Positions 998 to 64,000 of a stretch of DNA of 64,000 nucleotides are shown piece by piece. The number at the start of each line of letters is the position of its first letter. The first letter of the stretch is position 1. The DNA comes from Candidatus Pacearchaeota archaeon (lineage in GTDB: Archaea; Nanobdellota; Nanobdellia; Pacearchaeales; GW2011-AR1). The translations under genes and the position numbers were made by a program. The stretch lies in the NCBI GenBank assembly GCA_038885615.1, contig JAVZZP010000001.1, forward strand, positions 198,646-262,645. The letters are read 5' to 3'. The notes under the pieces were generated by a model. That model did not search any database, had not been told where the DNA came from, and saw only the letters and a program-made list of their open reading frames with translations.

Positions 998-2911
998 TTA
1001 TAATTTCTTTCTATATTTTTTCATTAATAGAGAATTTGAAACAACAGAAACAGAACTAAAAGCCATAGCTATTCCTGCAATAATTGGGTTAAGTAAAAAT
1101 CCTGTGAATGGATATAACAAACCAGCAGCTATAGGTATGCCCATAGAATTGTAAAAAAATGCCCAGAAAAGATTTTGTTTAATCTTTTTTATAGTATAAT
1201 TACTTAAATCTATTGCAGTTACCACATCTCTTAAATCATTTTTAACCAACACAATTTGCCCAGTTTCAAGCGCAACATCTGTTCCTGCACCTATTGCAAT
1301 ACCTATATCTGCCCTAGCAAGTGCCGGAGCATCATTGATACCATCACCAACCATCGCTACGATCTTACCCTTTTTCTGTAACTTACTAATCTCTTTTTCT
1401 TTATCTTCAGGCAGAACTTCAGCTAAAACATAATCTATACCAAGCTGCCTTGCAATCGCATTTGCTGTCCTTTTATTATCACCAGTAATCATAATTACTT
1501 CTTTACCCATTTTATGTAGTTTTTGAACAGCCTCTTTAGAAAACTCTTTTAAAGTATCTGCAACGGCAATCAGACCAACAACTTTTCTATTAACTGCTAA
1601 AATCATAACTGTTTTCCCTTCATTTTCTAAATTACTTATTTTTTCTTCAAATGTTTCAATTTTTATTTTATGCTTTTTCATTAAATTTCTATTACCAAAA
1701 AGAATCTCGTTTTTATTGTACTTCGCGATGATTCCATGTCCCGGGATTGCTTTAAAGAATTTAGCATCTGGAATTTTCATTTTTTCTTCTCTGGCTTTGT
1801 TAATAATGGAGTCTGCAAGAGGATGTTCTGATTTTTTTTCCGAAATAGCAGCATATTTTAGAATCTCTTTTTTATCTAATCTACCTACTGCTAAAATATC
1901 TGTAACCACTGGTTTTCCTTCTGTTAAAGTTCCTGTTTTATCAAAAACAATAGTTGTTAATTTATGCGCGTTTTCTAAAGCTTCTGCACCTTTAATTAAT
2001 ATTCCATTTTCTGCGCCTTTCCCTGTCCCAACCATTATTGCCGTTGGGGTTGCAAGACCCAAAGCACAAGGACATGCTATAATTAAAACTGCTATGAAAA
2101 TGCTCAGCGAAAAAACAAAACTTTCTCCTAAAATAAAATACCAAAATATAAAAGCTAAAATTGCAATACTAATAACCGCTGGGACAAAATAGCTACTCAC
2201 TTTATCTGCTAATCTTTGGATTGGTGCTTTGCTTCCTTGAGCTTCCTCTACTAATTTTATTATTTGATTAAGAGCAGTATCTTTTCCAACCTTAGTTGCT
2301 TTGAATTTGAATGAACCATGTTTATTGATTGTTGCCCCTATTACTGTATCCCCTTTCTTTTTTTCTATAGGCATACTTTCCCCTGTTATCATAGATTCAT
2401 CAACAGAAGAAATACCATCTATAACTATTCCATCAACAGGTATTTTTTGTCCTGGTTTTACTACGATAATATCCCCAACAATAACTTCATTAATTGGAAT
2501 TTGCACTTCTTTACCATCTCTGATAACAATCGCATTCTTCGGTTGTAAGCCCATTAGTTTTTTTATGGCTTCTGATGCCTTCCCTTTTGTTACAGCTTCA
2601 AGCCATTTTCCAAGAATAATAAATGTTATTATTATGGAAGAAGTCTCAAAATAAACATTATCTCCTAGAATATTAGGGAAGAGTACAACAAAAAAGCTGT
2701 AAAAGTAAGCAGCAGATGTTCCTATAGCTATCAAAGTGTCCATGTTTGCAGTTTTTGCTTTCAACGCTAAAAATGCTCCTCTATAGAATCTGTATCCAAC
2801 AATAAACTGGATAGGAGTTGCAAGCAGAAGGAGTATTATATTTTTGTATGGAATTTCTATATTCAACCATTCAAATGGCATTGCAATTAAAAAGATTGGG
2901 ATTGATAACAA
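998..2911 (-). CDS. copA: copper-translocating P1B-type ATPase CopA (ATPase body), in frame with the upstream HMA ORF across a TAG
   Basis: Motifs CPC ([13 protein letters not shown]), DKTGT (FDKTGTLT), MITGDN and [10 protein letters not shown]. No HMA domain and no ATG start. The listed start is TTG, preceded by 39 open codons up to TAG 3029-3031. Confidence 0.9.
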
Positions 2912-3028
2912 TAAAGAAAAAAGAAATGAAGATTTTAATGTTTTAATATCTTTTTCTCTAACTTCCTTTTCCCTATCAACAGCTTTTCCTGCTTCGTGAT
3001 CAACTTCTTTAATAACCTTATATCCTAA

Positions 3029-3214
3029 CTATTCAATAACATTATTTATCTCATTTTCATTAACCAAAGCTTCATTAAATTCAACAGTTGCTTTTTCTGT
3101 TGCGAAGTTAACATTTGCTTTAATAATTCCATCTAATTTTTTGAGGTTTGATTCTATCTTTTGTGCGCAAGAGGCACAATGCATGCCTGAGATTGGGATT
3201 ATTATTTTTTTCAT
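3029..3214 (-). CDS. copZ: heavy-metal-associated (HMA) copper chaperone CopZ-like domain ORF
   Basis: GMHCASC metal-binding motif. SD-like ggaggt lies upstream of ATG at 3214. Terminates with TAG 3029-3031 in the same frame as copA. Confidence 0.8.
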   Translation of the reverse strand: MKKIIIPISGMHCASCAQKIESNLKKLDGIIKANVNFATEKATVEFNEALVNENEINNVIE

Positions 3215-3328
3215 TTTTTTACCTCCTAAAACCACAACCACATCCTCCACCACTCCCCCACAACTTCCACTACCTCAGCAGCAACCTCCACCAGTAATCG
3301 GTTGTTCATTAGTAGTTTGTTGGCTGCT

Positions 3329-3982
3329 TTATTTAATTGAAGAATCATCTAAGACTGTTGCTTTGTAAGTGTTGAAAACATCCAATGAAAGTATTTCCTG
3401 CTTTGATGTTTTTGTGGAATCATAACTTATTGTGAATATGTTTGGGAATTTAAATTCTGTGTTTGTAATACCATCAATTTTATTCAGCTCTCCAGTTATT
3501 AGCGGAGCATGACCCGGACAAGGAATTGCAACTTGAATTGTTAAGGTAGATTGCGAGCCTTGGACCCCTACAAATGCGCCAGTTACTGTTGGATTTGAGA
3601 TTAAATTTGTTGCATAAGGAAAGATTATCATAAATAAAAACAAATTAGTCAAGATTGTTGTACCGTAAAGTATTGTTAGATATTTCCATTTTCTTTTAAT
3701 TCCTGAAATCGATAGTATTTCATTTCTTTTTAGATATATAATTGCTGAAATTGTAGCAAAAACAAAAGATAATCCTATCAAGATGTAAAAGAAATAGGGG
3801 TTAAGCAACAATGGCTTAAAGAAAGTTGTCATAGCTGTTACGCCTAAAACAGTAAAGACAATAAAAGCTATGCAACCGAAGTGTGGGATTAAACCATAAA
3901 CTATTCCTGCCAAAAATCCCTTTCCTTCTTTCTTATCAACTTTCTTACAACAATCTGGTTTTTCGTTATTTGAATTATCCAT
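3329..3982 (-). CDS. polytopic membrane protein with Cys motifs (DCCKK, PCPGH), function unknown, in cop operon
   Basis: Several hydrophobic helices; Cys-rich N- and C-terminal segments. Co-oriented between copZ and the thioredoxin-like gene. Confidence 0.35.
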   Translation of the reverse strand: MDNSNNEKPDCCKKVDKKEGKGFLAGIVYGLIPHFGCIAFIVFTVLGVTAMTTFFKPLLLNPYFFYILIGLSFVFATISAIIYLKRNEILSISGIKRKWKYLTILYGTTILTNLFLFMIIFPYATNLISNPTVTGAFVGVQGSQSTLTIQVAIPCPGHAPLITGELNKIDGITNTEFKFPNIFTISYDSTKTSKQEILSLDVFNTYKATVLDDSSIK

Positions 3983-4031: not shown

Positions 4032-4406
4032 TCACTGCAAATTTTTCTTAATGGCTTCTTTAATTATTTCCTTTGGCGGATAAGGATATTTTTTACCCTT
4101 ATAGAAATAAATTCTACATCCACAACTACATTCTTGTTTCACAAATGGGGTTGCTCTTTTGGTGTGTTCAGCAAGTTCTTCACATGGTAAACATCTACTC
4201 TTGCTAATTTCTTCTTGAATATCCTTTCCATTAATTCTGATAGTTGGTGAACCACTAAAATTATATTTATTTGCTTTTTTATCTGAATCGATCAAAATCT
4301 CTTTAACATCAGCTTTTACTTTAAGTTCTCTCAAACTTTTTCTAATCAATTCTTTAGTCTTTAGACACCAAGGACAATCCAAAATGTATAAAAGTTCAAT
4401 TTTCAT
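4032..4406 (-). CDS. thioredoxin-fold protein (CPWC active-site motif) with Cys-rich C-terminus
   Basis: LDCPWC motif in glutaredoxin/thioredoxin-like context; C-terminal CxCGC. Confidence 0.5.
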   Translation of the reverse strand: MKIELLYILDCPWCLKTKELIRKSLRELKVKADVKEILIDSDKKANKYNFSGSPTIRINGKDIQEEISKSRCLPCEELAEHTKRATPFVKQECSCGCRIYFYKGKKYPYPPKEIIKEAIKKNLQ

Positions 4407-4409
4407 AGT

Positions 4410-4922
4410 TTATCCCTTTTGTTTTAATATAACAACATTAGTCATACCTCGTCTTTTTCTTTCAACTAATCCCTTGCCTTCTAATTTATCAAGAATTCTT
4501 GTAATTTTAACTTTAGTGAATTTTGTTTTATCTACTAAATCTGATTGAAAAATAGTTCCTTCAGATTCAATTATTTTCTCAAAAACTTGTTTTTCATCAT
4601 TATCAAGCTTGCTTAATATTTTTTGATAATGTTCTTTTGCGATTTTCTTTGGTTCAATTTGTTGTTTTATTGCTTTGACTTTAGTTATTATTTTCTCTTC
4701 TTTCCCGAAGAAAATTAGATATAATCCAACTATTACAATAAAAACCATTATTCCTATGCTTACATTAGTCTGGAAATTTATAGAACCCCACATGGGGCAA
4801 GTAGGACCGTGTTCACACGATTTATTAACAATATTGGTCATTGCTCTATTGAAGGAAAATATTATAAAACCCATTAATGCAACTATTCCTAAAACCATAA
4901 ATCCTGCAATTCTATTCTTCAT
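4410..4922 (-). CDS. membrane-anchored winged-helix transcriptional regulator (2 TM flanking a CEHGPTCPMW motif, C-terminal wHTH)
   Basis: N-terminal TM, Cys/His/Met-rich loop, second TM, then a MarR/ArsR-like wHTH (KITRILDKLEGKGLVERKRRG). First gene of the minus-strand cop operon. Confidence 0.5.
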   Translation of the reverse strand: MKNRIAGFMVLGIVALMGFIIFSFNRAMTNIVNKSCEHGPTCPMWGSINFQTNVSIGIMVFIVIVGLYLIFFGKEEKIITKVKAIKQQIEPKKIAKEHYQKILSKLDNDEKQVFEKIIESEGTIFQSDLVDKTKFTKVKITRILDKLEGKGLVERKRRGMTNVVILKQKG

Positions 4923-4984: not shown

Positions 4985-5065
4985 GGATAGGCTATGTATA
5001 CTGAAGGGACTCTGCGGGGCTTCCGTTCGTTTTTCGTTTCGTAGCGAGGGGGCAAATTGCAACTA
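4985..5065. other. GC-rich noncoding island between cop operon and integrase; contains a direct repeat of the 704-717 sequence
   Basis: gcggggcttccgttcgtttttcgtttcgtagcgagggggcaaattgc. The 14-mer gtttttcgtttcgt at 5029-5042 is identical to 704-717. ggggcttc is also shared. Confidence 0.35.
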
Positions 5066-5133: not shown

Positions 5134-5929
5134 ATGGAAGATTTACTTAAAAATAAAGAGGAAATAATTCTAAAACTTAAAGAAGAATTAAAATTGAGAA
5201 AATACTCTCCAAGAACGATAGATAAATATACTTACATAATCTGCAAGTTCCTAAATTCTGGTAAAAGCATAAGAGAATTTTTGCTCGCTTATTCAGACAA
5301 GAGCAGATCTAGTGCAAGAACAGTATATTTTGCACTTCAGTTTTTATATAAGAATATCCTTAATATACCTTTTAAAGAAAAAGTACCTTTAATTAAAAGA
5401 AAAATCACATTACCTAATGTAATTAACAAAAAAGAAGTAACATCGATGATTAGTTCAACAAAAAATATGCAACATAGATTAATTTTAATGTTCTTATATT
5501 ATTCTGGACTAAGACTCCATGAACTTTTAAATTTAAAATGGGAAAATCTCGATTTTGAAAGAAAAACAATCAATTTAAAAATAGCTAAAAGAAGAACATC
5601 AGAGAACTATATTTTTGCATGAAAAGATAATAGAATTCCTAAAAATAGCTGGAATTAAAAAACAAGGATTAATTTTTATGTCTAATAGAAATAAAAAATA
5701 TTCAGAGGAATCTATTCAACAGATAGTTAAAGAAGCTGCAAAAAGAACAAACATTAAAAAAAGAGTCACTCCTCATACTTTAAGACATAGTTTCGCTACT
5801 CACCTACTGGAAGCAGGAGCAGATATAAGATATATTCAACAGCTTCTAGGTCACAAAAACCTACAAACGACACAAATCTATACTCATGTAGCAAATAGAG
5901 ATATAAATAAATTTGCAAATTTGCTTTAA
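5134..5929 (+). pseudogene. tyrosine recombinase/integrase (XerC/D family) disrupted by a frameshift in a TTTTT run near 5612-5616
   Basis: Two overlapping ORFs (5134-5622 and 5615-5929). Together they give an R...HxxR...Y recombinase ([27 protein letters not shown]). Removing one T restores ...[11 protein letters not shown]..., which aligns with the intact paralog at 42405-43286. Confidence 0.8.
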
Positions 5930-6536: not shown

Positions 6537-6605
6537 AAAAAAAGAAAGAAAAAAGAGTTTAAAAGATTTAGTAAGGTTTTTATATTGAATTTTCCCGATA
6601 TAAAC

Positions 6606-8048
6606 ATGACAAAAAAATTTTATGTCACAACAGCAATAGACTACCCTAACTCTGATCCACATTTGGGGCATGCTTATCAAAAAATTATAGCCGATGTTTT
6701 AGCTAGATGGCACAAAGTTTTGGGAGAAAAAGTTTGGTTTCTTACTGGAACTGACGAACATGGAAAAAAATTGCAGAGAGAAGCAGAAAAAAATGGCAAA
6801 ACACCTAGAGAATTTGTTGATGAACAGGCATTAAAATTTAAAGAAGCCTGGAAATTCCTTAATATTGAATACGATAGATTCATAAGAACTACGGACGAAG
6901 ACCATGAAAAACTTGTTCAAGAAGTTATTGAAAAATGCAAAAAAAATGATGATATATACTTGGGAGAATATGAAGGTTATTATTGCGTTGGTTGTGAAGG
7001 ATATCTAACAGAAAAAGATCTAGTTGACGGAAAATGTCCTTATCATAAAAAAGAACCTGAGTTAATAAAAGAGGAAAGTTATTTTTTTAGATTGAGCAAA
7101 TATCAAAAATTTCTTCTTGAGCTTTATGAAAAAAATCCAAAGTTTGTCTTGCCTGAAGAAAGAAAAAATGAGATTGTTTCAAGAATAAAAGAAGGTTTAA
7201 AAGATTTAAGTATTTCAAGAACAAGCTTTAATTGGGGTGTTCCTTTTCCAGGAGACAAAAAGCATGTTGTTTATGTTTGGTTTGATGCTTTATTTAATTA
7301 TATCAGTGGTGCAGGAAAAAATAGTGAATTCTGGCCGGCAGATGTCCATTTATTAGGGAAAGACAATGGTTGGTTTCATGGAGTTTATTGGCCTGCTTTC
7401 TTAAAATCTGCCGGTTATGAACTTCCTAAAACAGTTTTCGTTCATGGTTTTCTTTCTTTTAACGGACAAAAGATAAGCAAAAGTTTAGGTAATGGTATAT
7501 CTCCGAAATACTTAGTTGAAAAATACGGGAGTGACACAATAAGATATTTTATTTGCAGACAATTTCCTTTTGCCGAAGGAAAAGATGGGGACTTTTCTGA
7601 AAAAGCATTGATAGACAGACATAATAATGAGCTTGCAAACAAATGGGGGAATCTTGTTTCTAGAACCTCTGCTTTAATAGAAAAAAAAGGGATAGAAAAA
7701 TGCGAAAATTCCCTAAAAAGAAAGATAGATATAGAAAAAATAAAAAATCTTTTTGAGAACTTTGAAATAGACAAGGTTTTGAATGAAATTTTTGGTTTCA
7801 TAGATGAATGCAACGAATATTTGCAGCAAAAAAAACCCTGGGAAACAAAAAACAAAGAAGTTTTATACGAAATTGCTGATTCAATAAAAATTATCTCTAT
7901 TTTGCTTTGGCCTTTTATGCCTTCCTCCTCGGAAAGTGTTGCAAAACAATTTGGGTTTAAAGTCGGTTTTGATAGCTTGAAAGAAATTGATAAAACTCTG
8001 TCCTTAAGAGAAATAAAAAAAGAAGAGGCATTATTTAAAAAAATTTAA
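6606..8048 (+). CDS. metG: methionyl-tRNA synthetase (catalytic core, no C-terminal tRNA-binding domain)
   Basis: HIGH-type motif (HLGHAY) and KMSKS motif (KISKSLGN). TATA-like tttatatt about 25 nt upstream of ATG 6606 suggests a leaderless start; the listed 6585 start is TTG. Confidence 0.9.
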   Translation: MTKKFYVTTAIDYPNSDPHLGHAYQKIIADVLARWHKVLGEKVWFLTGTDEHGKKLQREAEKNGKTPREFVDEQALKFKEAWKFLNIEYDRFIRTTDEDHEKLVQEVIEKCKKNDDIYLGEYEGYYCVGCEGYLTEKDLVDGKCPYHKKEPELIKEESYFFRLSKYQKFLLELYEKNPKFVLPEERKNEIVSRIKEGLKDLSISRTSFNWGVPFPGDKKHVVYVWFDALFNYISGAGKNSEFWPADVHLLGKDNGWFHGVYWPAFLKSAGYELPKTVFVHGFLSFNGQKISKSLGNGISPKYLVEKYGSDTIRYFICRQFPFAEGKDGDFSEKALIDRHNNELANKWGNLVSRTSALIEKKGIEKCENSLKRKIDIEKIKNLFENFEIDKVLNEIFGFIDECNEYLQQKKPWETKNKEVLYEIADSIKIISILLWPFMPSSSESVAKQFGFKVGFDSLKEIDKTLSLREIKKEEALFKKI

Positions 8049-11194: not shown

Positions 11195-12559
11195 CTAAAC
11201 CCTCACCAACTCCCAACTTTCTTTTTTATCTCGGATTTCCCAGCCAAGCAACTTTAATTTTTCACGAAGTTCGTCGGCTTTTTTCCAATCTTTTTCTTGA
11301 CGGGCTTTTTGCCTTTCCTCTGCAATTTTTTTTATCTCATCTGGAATTTGGATTTCTTCTTTTTCAAACAAACCCAAACCTAAAACCTCATCGAATTTTT
11401 TTATTGTCCAGAATTTTCCTTCTGCTTTTTCATCTCTTAAAAAGTCCCATAAGACAGAAAGAGCTTTCGGCGTGTTTAAATCATCGTTAATTGCTTTTTC
11501 AAATTTTTTTAAGTACTCTTCATTTATTTTTCCATCATCATTAAGTTGTAAGCATAGATTTTTTAATCTCTTATATGAGTTTTGAGAATTTTCTAAAATT
11601 TCCAAAGAAAAATCCAATGGTTTTCTATAAACAGCTGTTAAAACAAAATACCTATATGACAAAGGCAAAAAACCTTTTTCCTCTAATTCACTTAATGTGT
11701 AAAGTCCTCCTTTTGATTTTGAAACTTTTTCTCCTTTAAAGGTTAAAAAATTCTCGTGAAGCCAAAAACGAACGAACTTTTTTCCGGTAGCTGCCTCGCT
11801 TTGAGCAATCTCATTTGTGTGATGAACTGGAATATGATCAATGCCTCCTGTGTGAATGTCGATTGTTTCTCCAAGATATTTCATTGCCATTGCAGAACAC
11901 TCAATGTGCCAACCAGGGAAACCCAACCCCCAAGGAGATTCCCACTCTTGTTGTCTTAAGCCGGGTTTCTCAGAAAATTTCCATAAAGCAAAATCTGTTG
12001 GATTTCTTTTTTCTTTTAAATCAACTCTTTTTCCAGCTTGCAAACCTTCTTTCTTTAATCTAGCAAGTTTTCCGTAATTTTCAAATTTTGAACTGTCAAA
12101 ATAAATTCCATCTGAAGTCCTATAAGTAAAACCTCTTTCTTCGAGTTTTTTTATCAACTCAATCATTTCTTTTATGTGTTCTGTCGCCCAACTCCAAACA
12201 AAAGGCTCTTCGATATTAAGCTTCTTTAAATCTTCATGAAAAAGATTAAAATAATAATGAGTTATTTCTTTAGCTGTTTTTCCTTCTCGTTTAGCAGCTT
12301 TTTCAATTTTGTCCTCGCCTTCATCAGCATCGGAGGTTAAATGACCAACATCTGTAACATTTATGACTTTCTTGACTTGAAAACCATTAAACTTTAAAGT
12401 TCTTGAAAGAATATCCGAAAAAATATATGCCTTAAGATTCCCTATATGCTGATACCAATAAACAGTTGGCCCGCAAGTGTACATAGTAACGATCGGGGGA
12501 TTCAATGGCTTAAAAATTTCTTTCTTTCTCGTTAAAGTGTTATAAAGTTTGAGGGACAT
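11195..12559 (-). CDS. cysS: cysteinyl-tRNA synthetase
   Basis: HIGN motif ([10 protein letters not shown]), KMSKS motif (KVSKSKGG) and a CysRS-like anticodon-binding C-terminus. Ends with a genuine TAG stop. Confidence 0.9.
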
Positions 12560-16408: not shown

Positions 16409-17257
16409 ATGATTTGGAGAATTCTTCCTTTAAAAAGAATAGAAAGAAACCCGTGGGAAATGTTTTATATTGGATTGTTTTACGCAAGTATTGCTTTTTT
16501 TGTTATTACATACTTCTTTTCTAAAGATGCTGTTCTAAACCAGTATAGAGGTATTTTACTTACCCTAATAACTTTAATTTGTTGTTTTCCTTATTTTTAT
16601 TTTTTTCTTAAACAAGAAGAAGGAAAAGACTTGGAAATTAGCGAAGAAGGAAAGTTAATAAAAGAGCATTGGAAAGCAATTATGGCCTTAATATGGCTTT
16701 TTATTGGATTAACTATTGGTTTCGGTTTTTGGTATTTAGTTCTTCCGGGAGAAGCTCCGAAAACTTTTGACGCACAAATAAAAACTTTTTGTTCTATAAA
16801 CAGTCCTGGTGGATATGAAGAATGCTTGAAAAAATATGGTGTAGTTACTGGCTCTGCTACCGATATAGGCCATTTTTTTGGAATTTTAATAAATAATATA
16901 GGTGTAATGATGATTACTCTTTTTTCTTCTATCATATTTGGTGCCGGCGCCATATTTATCCTCATATGGAATGCATCAGTTATTGGTGCTGCTATAGGAA
17001 TGTTTTCAAAAGACGTTGTAAAAATGCATTTTGGAGTTTTGAGATATTTTATTCACGGAATTCCCGAAATTGCTGCTTATTTTGTCGCTGCTTTAGCAGG
17101 AGGAATAATTTCTGTGGCTTTTGTGAGAAGAGATTTGAAAGGAGAAAGATTGTGGATAATTATGGAAGATGCAATAATCCTGGTAATACTTAGCGTTTTA
17201 ATTTTAATTGCTTCTGCTTTTATAGAAGTTTATATAACTCCTTTAATAATAAGATAG
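16409..17257 (+). CDS. SpoIIM-like (DUF95) polytopic membrane protein
   Basis: HGIPEIAAYFVAALAGG-type motif and about 6 TM helices. Confidence 0.4.
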   Translation: MIWRILPLKRIERNPWEMFYIGLFYASIAFFVITYFFSKDAVLNQYRGILLTLITLICCFPYFYFFLKQEEGKDLEISEEGKLIKEHWKAIMALIWLFIGLTIGFGFWYLVLPGEAPKTFDAQIKTFCSINSPGGYEECLKKYGVVTGSATDIGHFFGILINNIGVMMITLFSSIIFGAGAIFILIWNASVIGAAIGMFSKDVVKMHFGVLRYFIHGIPEIAAYFVAALAGGIISVAFVRRDLKGERLWIIMEDAIILVILSVLILIASAFIEVYITPLIIR

Positions 17258-17296
17258 CATCGAAAATATTTTAAACTATTCTTTTATAGAAACAAT

Positions 17297-17428
17297 ATGA
17301 AAACCTACAGGTGTTCAAATTGCGGGTATAAAACAAAAAAAGATAAACGCCCAGACAAATGCAATTATTGCGGTAAAAACACAATGCATGAAGAAGAAGA
17401 AATTGAAGATATTTTGAAAGAAGCTTAA
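17297..17428 (+). CDS. 43-aa zinc-ribbon protein (CxxC-x12-CxxC) with acidic tail
   Basis: MKTYRCSNCGYKTKKDKRPDKCNYCGKNTMHEEEEIEDILKEA. Not in track because it is under 60 aa. RpoP-like spacing but an atypical acidic C-terminus. Confidence 0.4.
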   Translation: MKTYRCSNCGYKTKKDKRPDKCNYCGKNTMHEEEEIEDILKEA

Positions 17429-38498: not shown

Positions 38499-38630
38499 GA
38501 GGGGATGCCGGAGTGGCCAAACGGGCAGGACTTAAGAAGCTCTCTTTAAAAAGAGACCTTGGAGAGAAACCAAGGAAATTAAGATATCCTGTGGCTTTTG
38601 CCTGCGGGGGTTCGAATCCTCCTCCCCTCA
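38499..38630 (+). tRNA. tRNA-Leu (anticodon UAA), class II, with 49-nt intron at the canonical 37/38 position (about 38537-38585)
   Basis: Acceptor GAGGGGA/UCCCCUC, 3-bp D-stem, anticodon arm CAGGA-CUUAAG[intron]A-UCCUG, long variable arm UGGCUUUUGCCUGC, T-arm GGGGG-UUCGAAU-CCUCC, discriminator A. The intron contains the hairpin ccttgg-agagaaa-ccaagg. Confidence 0.8.
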
Positions 38631-61982: not shown

Positions 61983-64000
61983 CTAATTCTTTCTCTTTAC
62001 AAACTCCTGCATATTTTCTGTCCAAAAATTTTTTTTGTTGTTTATGTATTTAAGAATATCAAAAACAATTAAGACCGATAAAGAAGTTATAATTCCAAAA
62101 AATAAGTAAAAAGTTTTTATTGGTGTTGTTTCAAAAATTTTATTAAAGAGAGGATTATAAATTGTTAAAATAGTGATTATTATTGCGAATAAAGAAGCAA
62201 AGAAAAGAGGCTTATTTGTGAAAGGGCTTCTGTTGAGAGAGGTTTTTCTGAATGAACGGAAGTTAAATGCGTTTGTTATTCCGAAGAAAACCATTGTTGC
62301 AAAAGTTATTGTTCTTGCAGCTATTTCTTCTTTTCCTTTTTGCAATACATAATAAAACATTGCTAATGAGCCAAGAGACATAATTATTCCAGCAAGAACC
62401 ATCATAAAAAATAAGGGGCCCGTAATTATCTCAGATTTTTTTCTTGGTTTATGATTTACTACATCATGAGAATAAGGATTAAAGGCAAGAGTTATTGCAG
62501 TTATTTCGTCGGAAAAAAGATTCATAAACAAAATTTGTATGGCAACAAGAGGGGCCGGCAGATTTAAAAGAATTGCTAAAAAAATAAGCATAACCTGTGA
62601 GAAATTTATAGAAATTTGATATGTTGTAAACTTTTGGATATTTGAGAAAATTGTTCTTCCTTCTTTTATTGCTTCAACTATTGTTGCAAAATTGTCATCT
62701 TTTAAAGTTATGTCAGCTACCTCTCTCGAGACATCTGTTCCAGCTTTCCCCATTGCTACACCAATATGTGCTTCTTTTAGGGAAGGAGCGTCATTTACTC
62801 CGTCCCCAGTCATTGTTACGATTTCTCCGTTCATTTTTAGTGCTTTAACAATTTTTAGTTTGTGTTCTGGTTTTACTCTTGCGAAAATCACTATTTCACC
62901 TACTATTTTTGAAAGTTCCTCTTCTGTTAGTTTTTCTAGTTCTTTTCCTTCAATGACTTTTCCAGAAAGACCAATTTGGTCTCCGATAGAAATAGCTGTT
63001 TCTTTATTATCACCCGTGATCATTTTAACTTTTATTCCTGCCTGCTTGCAAGTTCTTATTGCTTCAGCAACTTCAGGTTTTGGCGGATCTTCTATTGCAA
63101 CAATTCCTAAAAAAATTAGATCTTCTTCTTTTATTGTATTTGTTTTTACTGGCTTATAGGCAAGTCCGAGTGTTCTATATGCTTCTGAGTTAAATTCCTT
63201 ATTTATTTCTAGAATTTTTTTCTTTTCTTTTTCTGTCATTCTGAAAATTCCATCCTTTCTTTCAATAAACTTGCATTTTTCAATAAGAATTTCAACAGCC
63301 CCTTTTGTGTAAATTATTTTTTCTTTGTCTTTCACTTGTAAAACGGACATAATTTTTCTAGAAGAATTAAAAGGTATTTCTTCTATTCTTTTTCCTTTAA
63401 TATCTTCTTTGTATAAATCAATTTTTGAGGCAAGAACTAGCAATGATGCTTCTGTTGGCGAACCAATTATTTTAAATTCTTTATCTTCGCCTGTTCTTTC
63501 TATGAGAGCATCATTACAATAGACGCCAGTTTCAATTAATTTCATTAAAACTCTTTCTTTTTTTGGATTAATTTTTTCTTTTTCTAAAAAGAAATCACCA
63601 TGACCTTCATAACCAACTCCCGAAACATCAAAAATTTTACCATCGGTCAAAATTTTTTTTACAGTCATTTCACCTTTTGTTATTGTTCCTGTTTTGTCAG
63701 AGCAAATTACTGTTGTTTCCCCGAGGGTTTCTATAACAGACATTCTATTTACTATTGCATTTTTTTTCGCCATTCTATAGGCTCCTGTAGATAGAGAAGT
63801 TATTAAAACGACTGGAAAACCTTCTGGAAAAGATGCGACTGCGACAGCAACCGCTATAATCATCGCTTCAATTAATCTTTCATTAGTTAACTGCGGGGCT
63901 TTGAGAATCATCATTAATGCAGTAAGCAAGGAAAAAGTTATTCCAAAAATTGCCAATCTTTTTGCTATTCTGTTCATTTTTTTCTGAAGAGGCAATTCTT
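61983..64000 (-). CDS. type II P-type cation-transporting ATPase, 5' partial at window edge
   Basis: DKTGTIT, PEGFPVV (PEGLP-like), MITGDNKETA and GDGVNDAPSL motifs. The N-terminal actuator domain and TM1-2 region lie beyond the window. Confidence 0.85.
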   Translation of the reverse strand, partial: ELPLQKKMNRIAKRLAIFGITFSLLTALMMILKAPQLTNERLIEAMIIAVAVAVASFPEGFPVVLITSLSTGAYRMAKKNAIVNRMSVIETLGETTVICSDKTGTITKGEMTVKKILTDGKIFDVSGVGYEGHGDFFLEKEKINPKKERVLMKLIETGVYCNDALIERTGEDKEFKIIGSPTEASLLVLASKIDLYKEDIKGKRIEEIPFNSSRKIMSVLQVKDKEKIIYTKGAVEILIEKCKFIERKDGIFRMTEKEKKKILEINKEFNSEAYRTLGLAYKPVKTNTIKEEDLIFLGIVAIEDPPKPEVAEAIRTCKQAGIKVKMITGDNKETAISIGDQIGLSGKVIEGKELEKLTEEELSKIVGEIVIFARVKPEHKLKIVKALKMNGEIVTMTGDGVNDAPSLKEAHIGVAMGKAGTDVSREVADITLKDDNFATIVEAIKEGRTIFSNIQKFTTYQISINFSQVMLIFLAILLNLPAPLVAIQILFMNLFSDEITAITLAFNPYSHDVVNHKPRKKSEIITGPLFFMMVLAGIIMSLGSLAMFYYVLQKGKEEIAARTITFATMVFFGITNAFNFRSFRKTSLNRSPFTNKPLFFASLFAIIITILTIYNPLFNKIFETTPIKTFYLFFGIITSLSVLIVFDILKYINNKKNFWTENMQEFVKRKN

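Follow-up and report, generated by a model that had tools for sequence, protein, structure and literature searches.

The P1B-1 Cu(I)-exporting ATPases are represented among solved structures by A. fulgidus CopA (3J09), in which an N-terminal HMA domain with a CxxC metal site precedes the membrane helices MA, MB and M1-M6, and which carries the motifs TGE, CPC, DKTGT, HP, GDGIND, YN and MxxSS. Passages of PMC7558416 and PMC3817396 describe the N-terminal metal-binding domains as regulatory and, in several CopAs, dispensable for transport, and Delta-N constructs of A. fulgidus CopA (3J08, 7R0G), purified for structural work, appear to begin before MA. A single copA gene can also give two products. 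In E. coli, programmed -1 frameshifting yields the chaperone CopA(Z) alongside the pump (Meydan et al. 2017 and Drees et al. 2017, as cited in a passage of PMC7558416), with a slippery sequence, a pseudoknot and the nascent chain involved. The archaeal cases of stop-codon readthrough treated in PMC8211752 are Sec and Pyl insertion; Pyl occurs in the methylamine methyltransferases of methanogens, with the pylTSBCD genes. Ordinary prokaryotic nonsense pseudogenes, or 'interrupted coding sequences', consist of a conserved gene with a single in-frame stop and intact orthologues. Here we compare with these systems a copA gene interrupted by one in-frame TAG, found in a 64,000-nucleotide stretch of DNA of a Candidatus Pacearchaeota archaeon (the window; 29% GC).

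The minus strand contains a frame that extends from ATG 3214 to TAA 998 (998..3214; 738 codons and the TAA) and is colinear with 738-aa relatives. Its sole interruption is a TAG at 3031-3029, codon 62. Translation of the longer minus-strand span 3253..998 contains exactly one internal stop, which bears out the initial observation, made in a preliminary description of this DNA, that this TAG alone interrupts a single frame. The true start is ATG 3214-3212, which is preceded by the Shine-Dalgarno sequence GGAGGT (3221..3226, minus strand; a 6-nt match), and the relatives all start with MKK. Counted from this ATG rather than from GTG 3253, the N-terminal ORF has 61 codons instead of the 74 first reported, and the joined product has 738 aa rather than about 750. 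Codons 1-61 (3032..3214, minus strand) code an HMA fragment comprising beta1-alpha1-beta2-beta3-alpha2 and the MHCASC metal site, without beta4, and are deposited in GenBank as the 61-aa 'HMA domain protein' MEM4181785.1. Downstream of the TAG (3029..3031, minus strand), 676 codons are open. The first 39 of these, codons 63-101 (2912..3028, minus strand), contain no ATG, GTG or TTG, as had been noted, and the next possible start is TTG 2911. They code HMA strand beta4 (LGYKVIK), a flexible linker and the N-terminal two thirds of helix MA. The earlier assignment of this segment to the linker thus holds in part: the linker does lie here, but the first residues, LGYKVIK, belong to the HMA domain as its final beta strand. 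The remainder from TTG codon 102 (998..2911, minus strand) holds every catalytic and Cu-site motif; of this remainder GenBank annotates 627 aa from ATG 2881, codon 112, as the 'copper-translocating ATPase' MEM4181784.1.

Joined, the 738 aa align over their whole length with full-length heavy-metal P-type ATPases. More than 100 of its relatives are full-length fused proteins of 725-740 aa with 73-93% identity, several of them exactly 738 aa long, and among solved structures A. fulgidus CopA 3J09 matches best (E=7e-221, residues 6-734). The score with the NCBIfam model for copper P1B ATPases, TIGR01511, is 666 bits (cut-off 397), and the Pfam models E1-E2_ATPase and Hydrolase match with E-values of 7.7e-65 and 1.3e-39, respectively. 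The translation contains the P-type core motifs TGES (ITGES), DKTGT (FDKTGT), SEHP and GDGIND, together with the Cu(I) membrane-site signature CPC, YN and MxxSS (MAFSSVSV), whose residues are invariant across a 52-sequence alignment. Only the joined frame provides all eight transmembrane helices, including MA and MB, as judged from the AlphaFold (AF2) model of a colinear, 92%-identical relative (mean pLDDT 76). The whole frame thus codes a P1B-1 Cu(I)-exporting ATPase, now interrupted. It differs from A. fulgidus CopA and other P1B-1 ATPases in that their uninterrupted frame is here broken by the TAG at codon 62, and in having no C-terminal metal-binding domain. On the evidence of the sequence, both halves are one gene with one lesion, and the locus is copA by descent and, as written, a pseudogene or null allele.

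The position of the TAG relative to the HMA fold was examined by profile alignment and in the same AF2 model. The Pfam HMA model (62 positions) aligns over its positions 2-62 to residues 6-66 of the joined protein, the alignments with solved HMA domains and CopZ proteins extend to residues 66-70, and the CopZ NCBIfam models align up to residues 66-67, with scores under their cut-offs. In the AF2 model the HMA domain consists of beta1 (2-9), alpha1 (14-25), beta2 (30-36), beta3 (41-46), alpha2 (53-62) and beta4 (66-67), and is followed by a disordered linker (71-78), helix MA (75-111), MB (124-152) and then M1-M6. According to the model, codon 62 is the last residue of alpha2, within the HMA fold and not at the border between a CopZ-like domain and CopA. 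Because the TAG precedes beta4, the upstream 61-aa product is without this strand, and it is also without the GY motif. The initial proposal that the stop separates an intact 'CopZ-like' HMA domain from copA has consequently been revised: the domain itself is cut. The ORF retains MHCASC, but in ending at residue 61, before beta4, it falls short of a stand-alone CopZ/Atx1-type chaperone. E. coli CopA(Z) reportedly ends past a complete first HMA domain, unlike the product described here.

Comparison with related loci identified the ancestral state of codon 62. The two closest relatives, L001 (GCA_038859645.1) and L084 (a Logan contig), are colinear with the interrupted gene without indels (92.4% and 92.1% nucleotide identity, respectively), and both have CAG at this codon; four others, L085 among them, have CAA. 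The TAG is therefore one C>T transition away from a Gln codon, the ancestral state. Across the relatives, position 62 is occupied by Q, K, R, H, D, E, N, S or G, and this variability indicates that the residue is not functionally critical. No stop was found at codon 62 or within the first ~100 codons in ~45 copA-type loci from species-representative genomes. A search of metagenome contigs with the degenerate pattern IE-NAR-LGYKVIK, in which NAR was allowed at codon 62, returned 22 loci, 12 of them copA-type, with no stop at codon 62 in any and, in the 12, none within the first ~100 codons either. In total, the codon-62 stop is absent from about 57 related copA-type loci. Every full-length relative among the matches listed is fused, the only shorter entries among them being three cut at contig ends and the 627-aa annotation of the MAG itself. 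Relatives with an independent copZ and a copA with its own ATG, a configuration that would have spoken against a broken gene, were not encountered: the close relatives are fused and have Gln at codon 62. An original pair of independent genes was rejected on these grounds, the TAG lying inside the HMA fold and all relatives being fused.

Apart from the TAG, the gene shows no decay. Relative to L001, dN/dS is 0.14 overall and 0.14 for the body of the gene, 0.07 for codons 1-61 (the HMA part) and 0.41 for the linker and MA segment, which at 39 codons is a small sample. In the window lineage 12 amino-acid changes are unique, and each of them is conservative; five relatives have 10-28. On the window branch we counted 27 synonymous and 12 nonsynonymous codon changes (31% nonsynonymous), whereas neutrality predicts 74% nonsynonymous; the nonsynonymous share in the two relatives tested alike, L001 and L085, is 20-23%. 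These values indicate that copA has been under purifying selection for essentially the whole window branch. Since selection has acted elsewhere in the gene and the Cu(I)-ATPase motifs are intact, the stop is young. More exactly, this selection leaves three possibilities, a stop of very recent origin, a stop that is not real and one that is read through: a sequencing error or a read-through stop would leave the same picture of a gene without decay elsewhere.

TAG is an ordinary stop in this genome. Among the 68 long non-overlapping ORFs of the window, 43 end in TAA, 17 in TGA and 8 in TAG, and the TAG-ended genes include those for CysRS, a Toprim protein, a SpoIIM-like protein and a GATase, all with complete domains. 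The preliminary description had relied on cysS as an example. This gene (11195-12559, minus strand) does terminate in TAG, with the CysRS catalytic and CysS_C domains complete, and reading through it gives junk, as stated there; the TAG-ended genes of the window extend into short junk or into the next gene. With all three stops in use and the TAG-ended genes complete, the conclusion that the genome is not recoded stands. When same-frame neighbouring open segments were compared across the window, copA was the only genuinely coding pair separated by a single stop and with a distant start. No split genes were found elsewhere in the window, the candidate ORF pairs tested being unrelated neighbouring genes and not fragments.

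The genes next to copA are also damaged. The preceding gene of the operon (3329..3982, minus strand) codes a 217-aa membrane protein whose sequence includes GLIPHxGCIAF and CPGH motifs. Compared with its homologues, which have about 245-260 aa, or about 320 aa when an N-terminal HMA domain is present, this protein is truncated. A Gly/Cys-rich tail (e.g. ...GGCCGGGGSCGGSGGGCGCGFRR) ends 111 of the 122 listed sequences, nearly all of them members of the family, and is kept in the 91%-identical relative from L084. Comparison with L084 identified the 114-nt G-rich 'spacer' in front of copA (3215..3328, minus strand) as the decayed remnant of this C-terminal tail. Three lesions account for it: a premature TAA at 3331-3329 (CAA in L084), a TGA at 3277-3275 (GGA in L084) and, near 3254, the loss of 1 nt. 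The gene ancestrally ended at TAA 3221-3219, the conserved ...SGGGCGCGFRR* can still be read past the frameshift, and the ancestral last codons AGG AGG TAA (3227-3219) make up the Shine-Dalgarno sequence of copA. Further upstream, the genes for a DUF2703/thioredoxin-like protein (4032-4406, minus strand) and for a membrane-anchored MarR/DUF7343 regulator (4410-4922, minus strand) appear intact, and the same regulator family adjoins copA in L001, L084 and L085. A tyrosine recombinase/integrase gene ~2 kb away (5134..5929, plus strand) is split by a frameshift near 5585-5620, with one frame covering positions 2-67 of the Phage_integrase model and the following frame positions 62-169. Its presence beside the copper cluster suggests a former mobile cassette. 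Including the TAG in copA, five inactivating lesions fall in three genes within about 2.7 kb.

We consider it probable that the TAG is a real, young nonsense allele of copA (Gln62, CAG to TAG) in an accessory copper-resistance operon that was already losing parts. Between the alternatives raised in the preliminary description, a recent nonsense mutation is thus preferred and a base error is possible, while programmed readthrough finds no support; most probably the stop is a commonplace loss-of-function mutation of very recent date (or a consensus error) and not a recoding signal. As we picture it, ribosomes would initiate at ATG 3214, terminate at the TAG and release the 61-aa HMA fragment, which probably folds poorly because it has neither the edge strand beta4 nor the conserved aromatic of the GY motif. 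The remaining 676 codons would be essentially untranslated, since no start codon follows the TAG for 117 nt and no Shine-Dalgarno sequence stands before TTG 2911 or ATG 2881, in contrast to the 6-nt GGAGGT match of ATG 3214. Independent expression of the downstream part is accordingly considered unlikely; a Shine-Dalgarno sequence precedes 9 of 56 genes in the window, most of which appear leaderless. Even the earliest possible restarts would remove most or all of MA. At most, background near-cognate misreading of the UAG might produce a trace of full-length pump, and misreading by tRNA-Gln would restore the ancestral residue. With termination at codon 62 and an untranslated remainder, copA would be a young pseudogene or null allele that has presumably lost its function, and the operon of MarR-like regulator, DUF2703 thioredoxin-like protein, Cys-tail membrane protein and CopA would be eroding in this lineage.

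Such a gene is of an already known kind and calls for at most an annotation correction. As in ordinary nonsense pseudogenes, a single in-frame stop interrupts a conserved gene with intact orthologues, and the gene is accessory and lies beside a degraded integrase and another degraded gene. Nothing essential differs, except that this lesion is unusually recent and the 2.2-kb gene has not decayed any further. The consequence for annotation and metabolic inference is that the two proteins in GenBank would represent one disabled gene, and that a functional Cu(I) efflux pump encoded at the copA locus should probably not be assumed for the MAG. Taken with the eroded upstream gene and the frameshifted integrase, the locus would illustrate, on a small scale, how an accessory metal-resistance cluster decays within a reduced DPANN genome.

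The main rival, to which we assign a minor but real share of probability, is a consensus or assembly error or a polymorphic site: the organism would have CAG, or the population would be mixed with a minority allele taken as consensus, and copA would be intact. A single base separates the gene from the CAG of its closest relatives, copA is otherwise flawless and under purifying selection, and the truncated proteins are singletons on one contig; no independent assembly of the same strain was found by exact-protein look-ups. Consensus substitution errors are, however, rare next to real pseudogenes. Moreover, one error cannot explain the four further independent lesions nearby, two stops and two indels, although three of them, those in the upstream tail, sit in G-rich, low-complexity DNA, where assemblies are least reliable. 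That the tests made revealed no split genes elsewhere in the window indicates that the assembly is not generally error-ridden. The substitution spectrum provides a further argument. With 3 C>T among 58 lineage-specific substitutions in copA, it is ordinary and without C>T excess, which speaks against a damage artefact and led us to rule out one of the deamination type. For these reasons an artefact at codon 62, while it would fit the pristine state of the rest of the gene, appears to us an unlikely explanation of the locus.

Very unlikely, in our analysis, is a leaky or programmed UAG that would be read through to give a small HMA protein and a full-length pump from one gene. In principle the outcome would be that of E. 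coli copA, a short HMA product and the complete pump from one mRNA. The perfectly preserved downstream frame is as expected of such a gene, and codon 62, a variable surface position, should tolerate any inserted residue. The means differ, the E. coli signals having as their counterpart here a plain in-frame TAG, followed directly by T, with no predicted stable structure and no conservation. A programmed signal should be conserved, whereas none of the about 57 copA-type loci has the stop. A 134-nt segment spanning the TAG and its downstream flank is no more stably folded than shuffled sequences (z = -0.57; 49/200 fold as well), and no tRNA with the CUA anticodon of a suppressor was detected among the four tRNAs of the window (Phe-GAA, Gly-UCC, Ser-CGA and an intron-containing Leu-UAA, found with Rfam only). 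The released fragment, ending before beta4, would also be an incomplete chaperone fold, unlike CopA(Z). Insertion of pyrrolysine, which the locus resembles in having an in-frame UAG within an archaeal gene, differs in that the ancestral residue here is an unconserved surface Gln, the host belongs to the DPANN archaea and the window has no tRNA-CUA. The archaeal precedents treated in PMC8211752 are Sec and Pyl insertion. The specific version in which a real but leaky TAG gives a small Cu-binding HMA peptide, with occasional near-cognate decoding (e.g. by tRNA-Gln) supplying the pump, strikes us as more doubtful still. If true, it would be a DPANN stop-codon counterpart of the chaperone/pump frameshift of E. 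coli copA, and moderately interesting as such.

We attach equally little probability to a functional fission of the gene, in which the 61-aa HMA protein would serve as a free chaperone and a shortened pump would start at TTG 2911 or ATG 2881. GenBank does carry two separate proteins, and the dispensability of N-terminal metal-binding domains for transport in several CopAs, like the purified Delta-N constructs, speaks for this reading. The break, however, falls within the HMA fold and not between domains, and CopZ models require about 64-68 residues. The candidate restarts lie 117-147 nt beyond the stop, without Shine-Dalgarno sequences, and codons 102 (TTG) and 112 (ATG) are placed by the AF2 model at the end of MA or after it. 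On the question raised earlier of whether a CopA starting at TTG 2911 would have 6 or 8 TM helices, the model indicates that a start at either codon would give a protein lacking MA. By contrast, the Delta-N constructs and every retrieved relative keep MA. HMA-less relatives that match only from residue ~81-87 were considered as a precedent and rejected, since they have a TRASH/YHS-type N-terminal domain and a full MA, and no relative shows a split of the kind proposed. The break inside a domain, together with a restart that would delete MA, disfavours fission. Finally, a reassigned code with TAG as sense was rejected because all three stops are in use, the TAG-ended genes are complete and a single TAG splits a gene in 64 kb.

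Several further features of copA relatives and of the window were recorded. In eight related DPANN CopA loci, a TRASH/YHS-type N-terminal domain with the motif DPVCGM...YYFCS..C replaces the HMA domain. Three other copA relatives of about 1100-1170 aa match PF14890, which we take to be an intein domain; these matches suggest intein-containing CopA genes in DPANN archaea. The gene at 3329-3982 belongs to a large, uncharacterised family of DPANN membrane proteins encoded beside copA, with five cysteines in the conserved tail (GGCCGGGGSCG..CGCG). No Pfam model was found for it, JGI names some members 'CopZ', and the family may work together with CopA in handling copper.

The copper cluster is flanked by an exact direct repeat of 14 nt, GTTTTTCGTTTCGT (17 nt at 94%), with copies at 704-717 and 5029-5042. 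It is probably not an att site, a repeat of 14 nt being near chance expectation in 7 kb at 29% GC and the flanks being otherwise dissimilar. The noncoding ~280 nt downstream of copA (718-997) have a GC content of 36-38%, above that of the surroundings, and the stretch 700-997 gave no Rfam match at a relaxed threshold and no similarity to any fetched locus. A second P-type ATPase gene, with TAG as its stop, runs off the window end (61983-64000, minus strand). Its best matches are PMR1/SERCA Ca-type models; truncation of the protein at the window end keeps the scores below the curated cut-offs. It was accordingly rejected as a redundant Cu pump and, the other P-type ATPase being of the Ca type, no back-up Cu pump is visible in the window.

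A Zn-ribbon small ORF (MKTYRCSNCGYKTKKDKRPDKCNYCGKNT..., about 43 aa; 17258-17428, plus strand) lies in frame just past the TAG of the SpoIIM-like gene (16409-17257). With its own ATG, it looks like a separate small gene rather than a readthrough extension. The tRNA-Leu (UAA) gene at 38499-38630, plus strand, which was missed by ARAGORN and found by Rfam, has an intron of ~50 nt after the anticodon loop. The gene at 6585-8048, plus strand, codes a methionyl-tRNA synthetase (tRNA-synt_1g, 6e-108).
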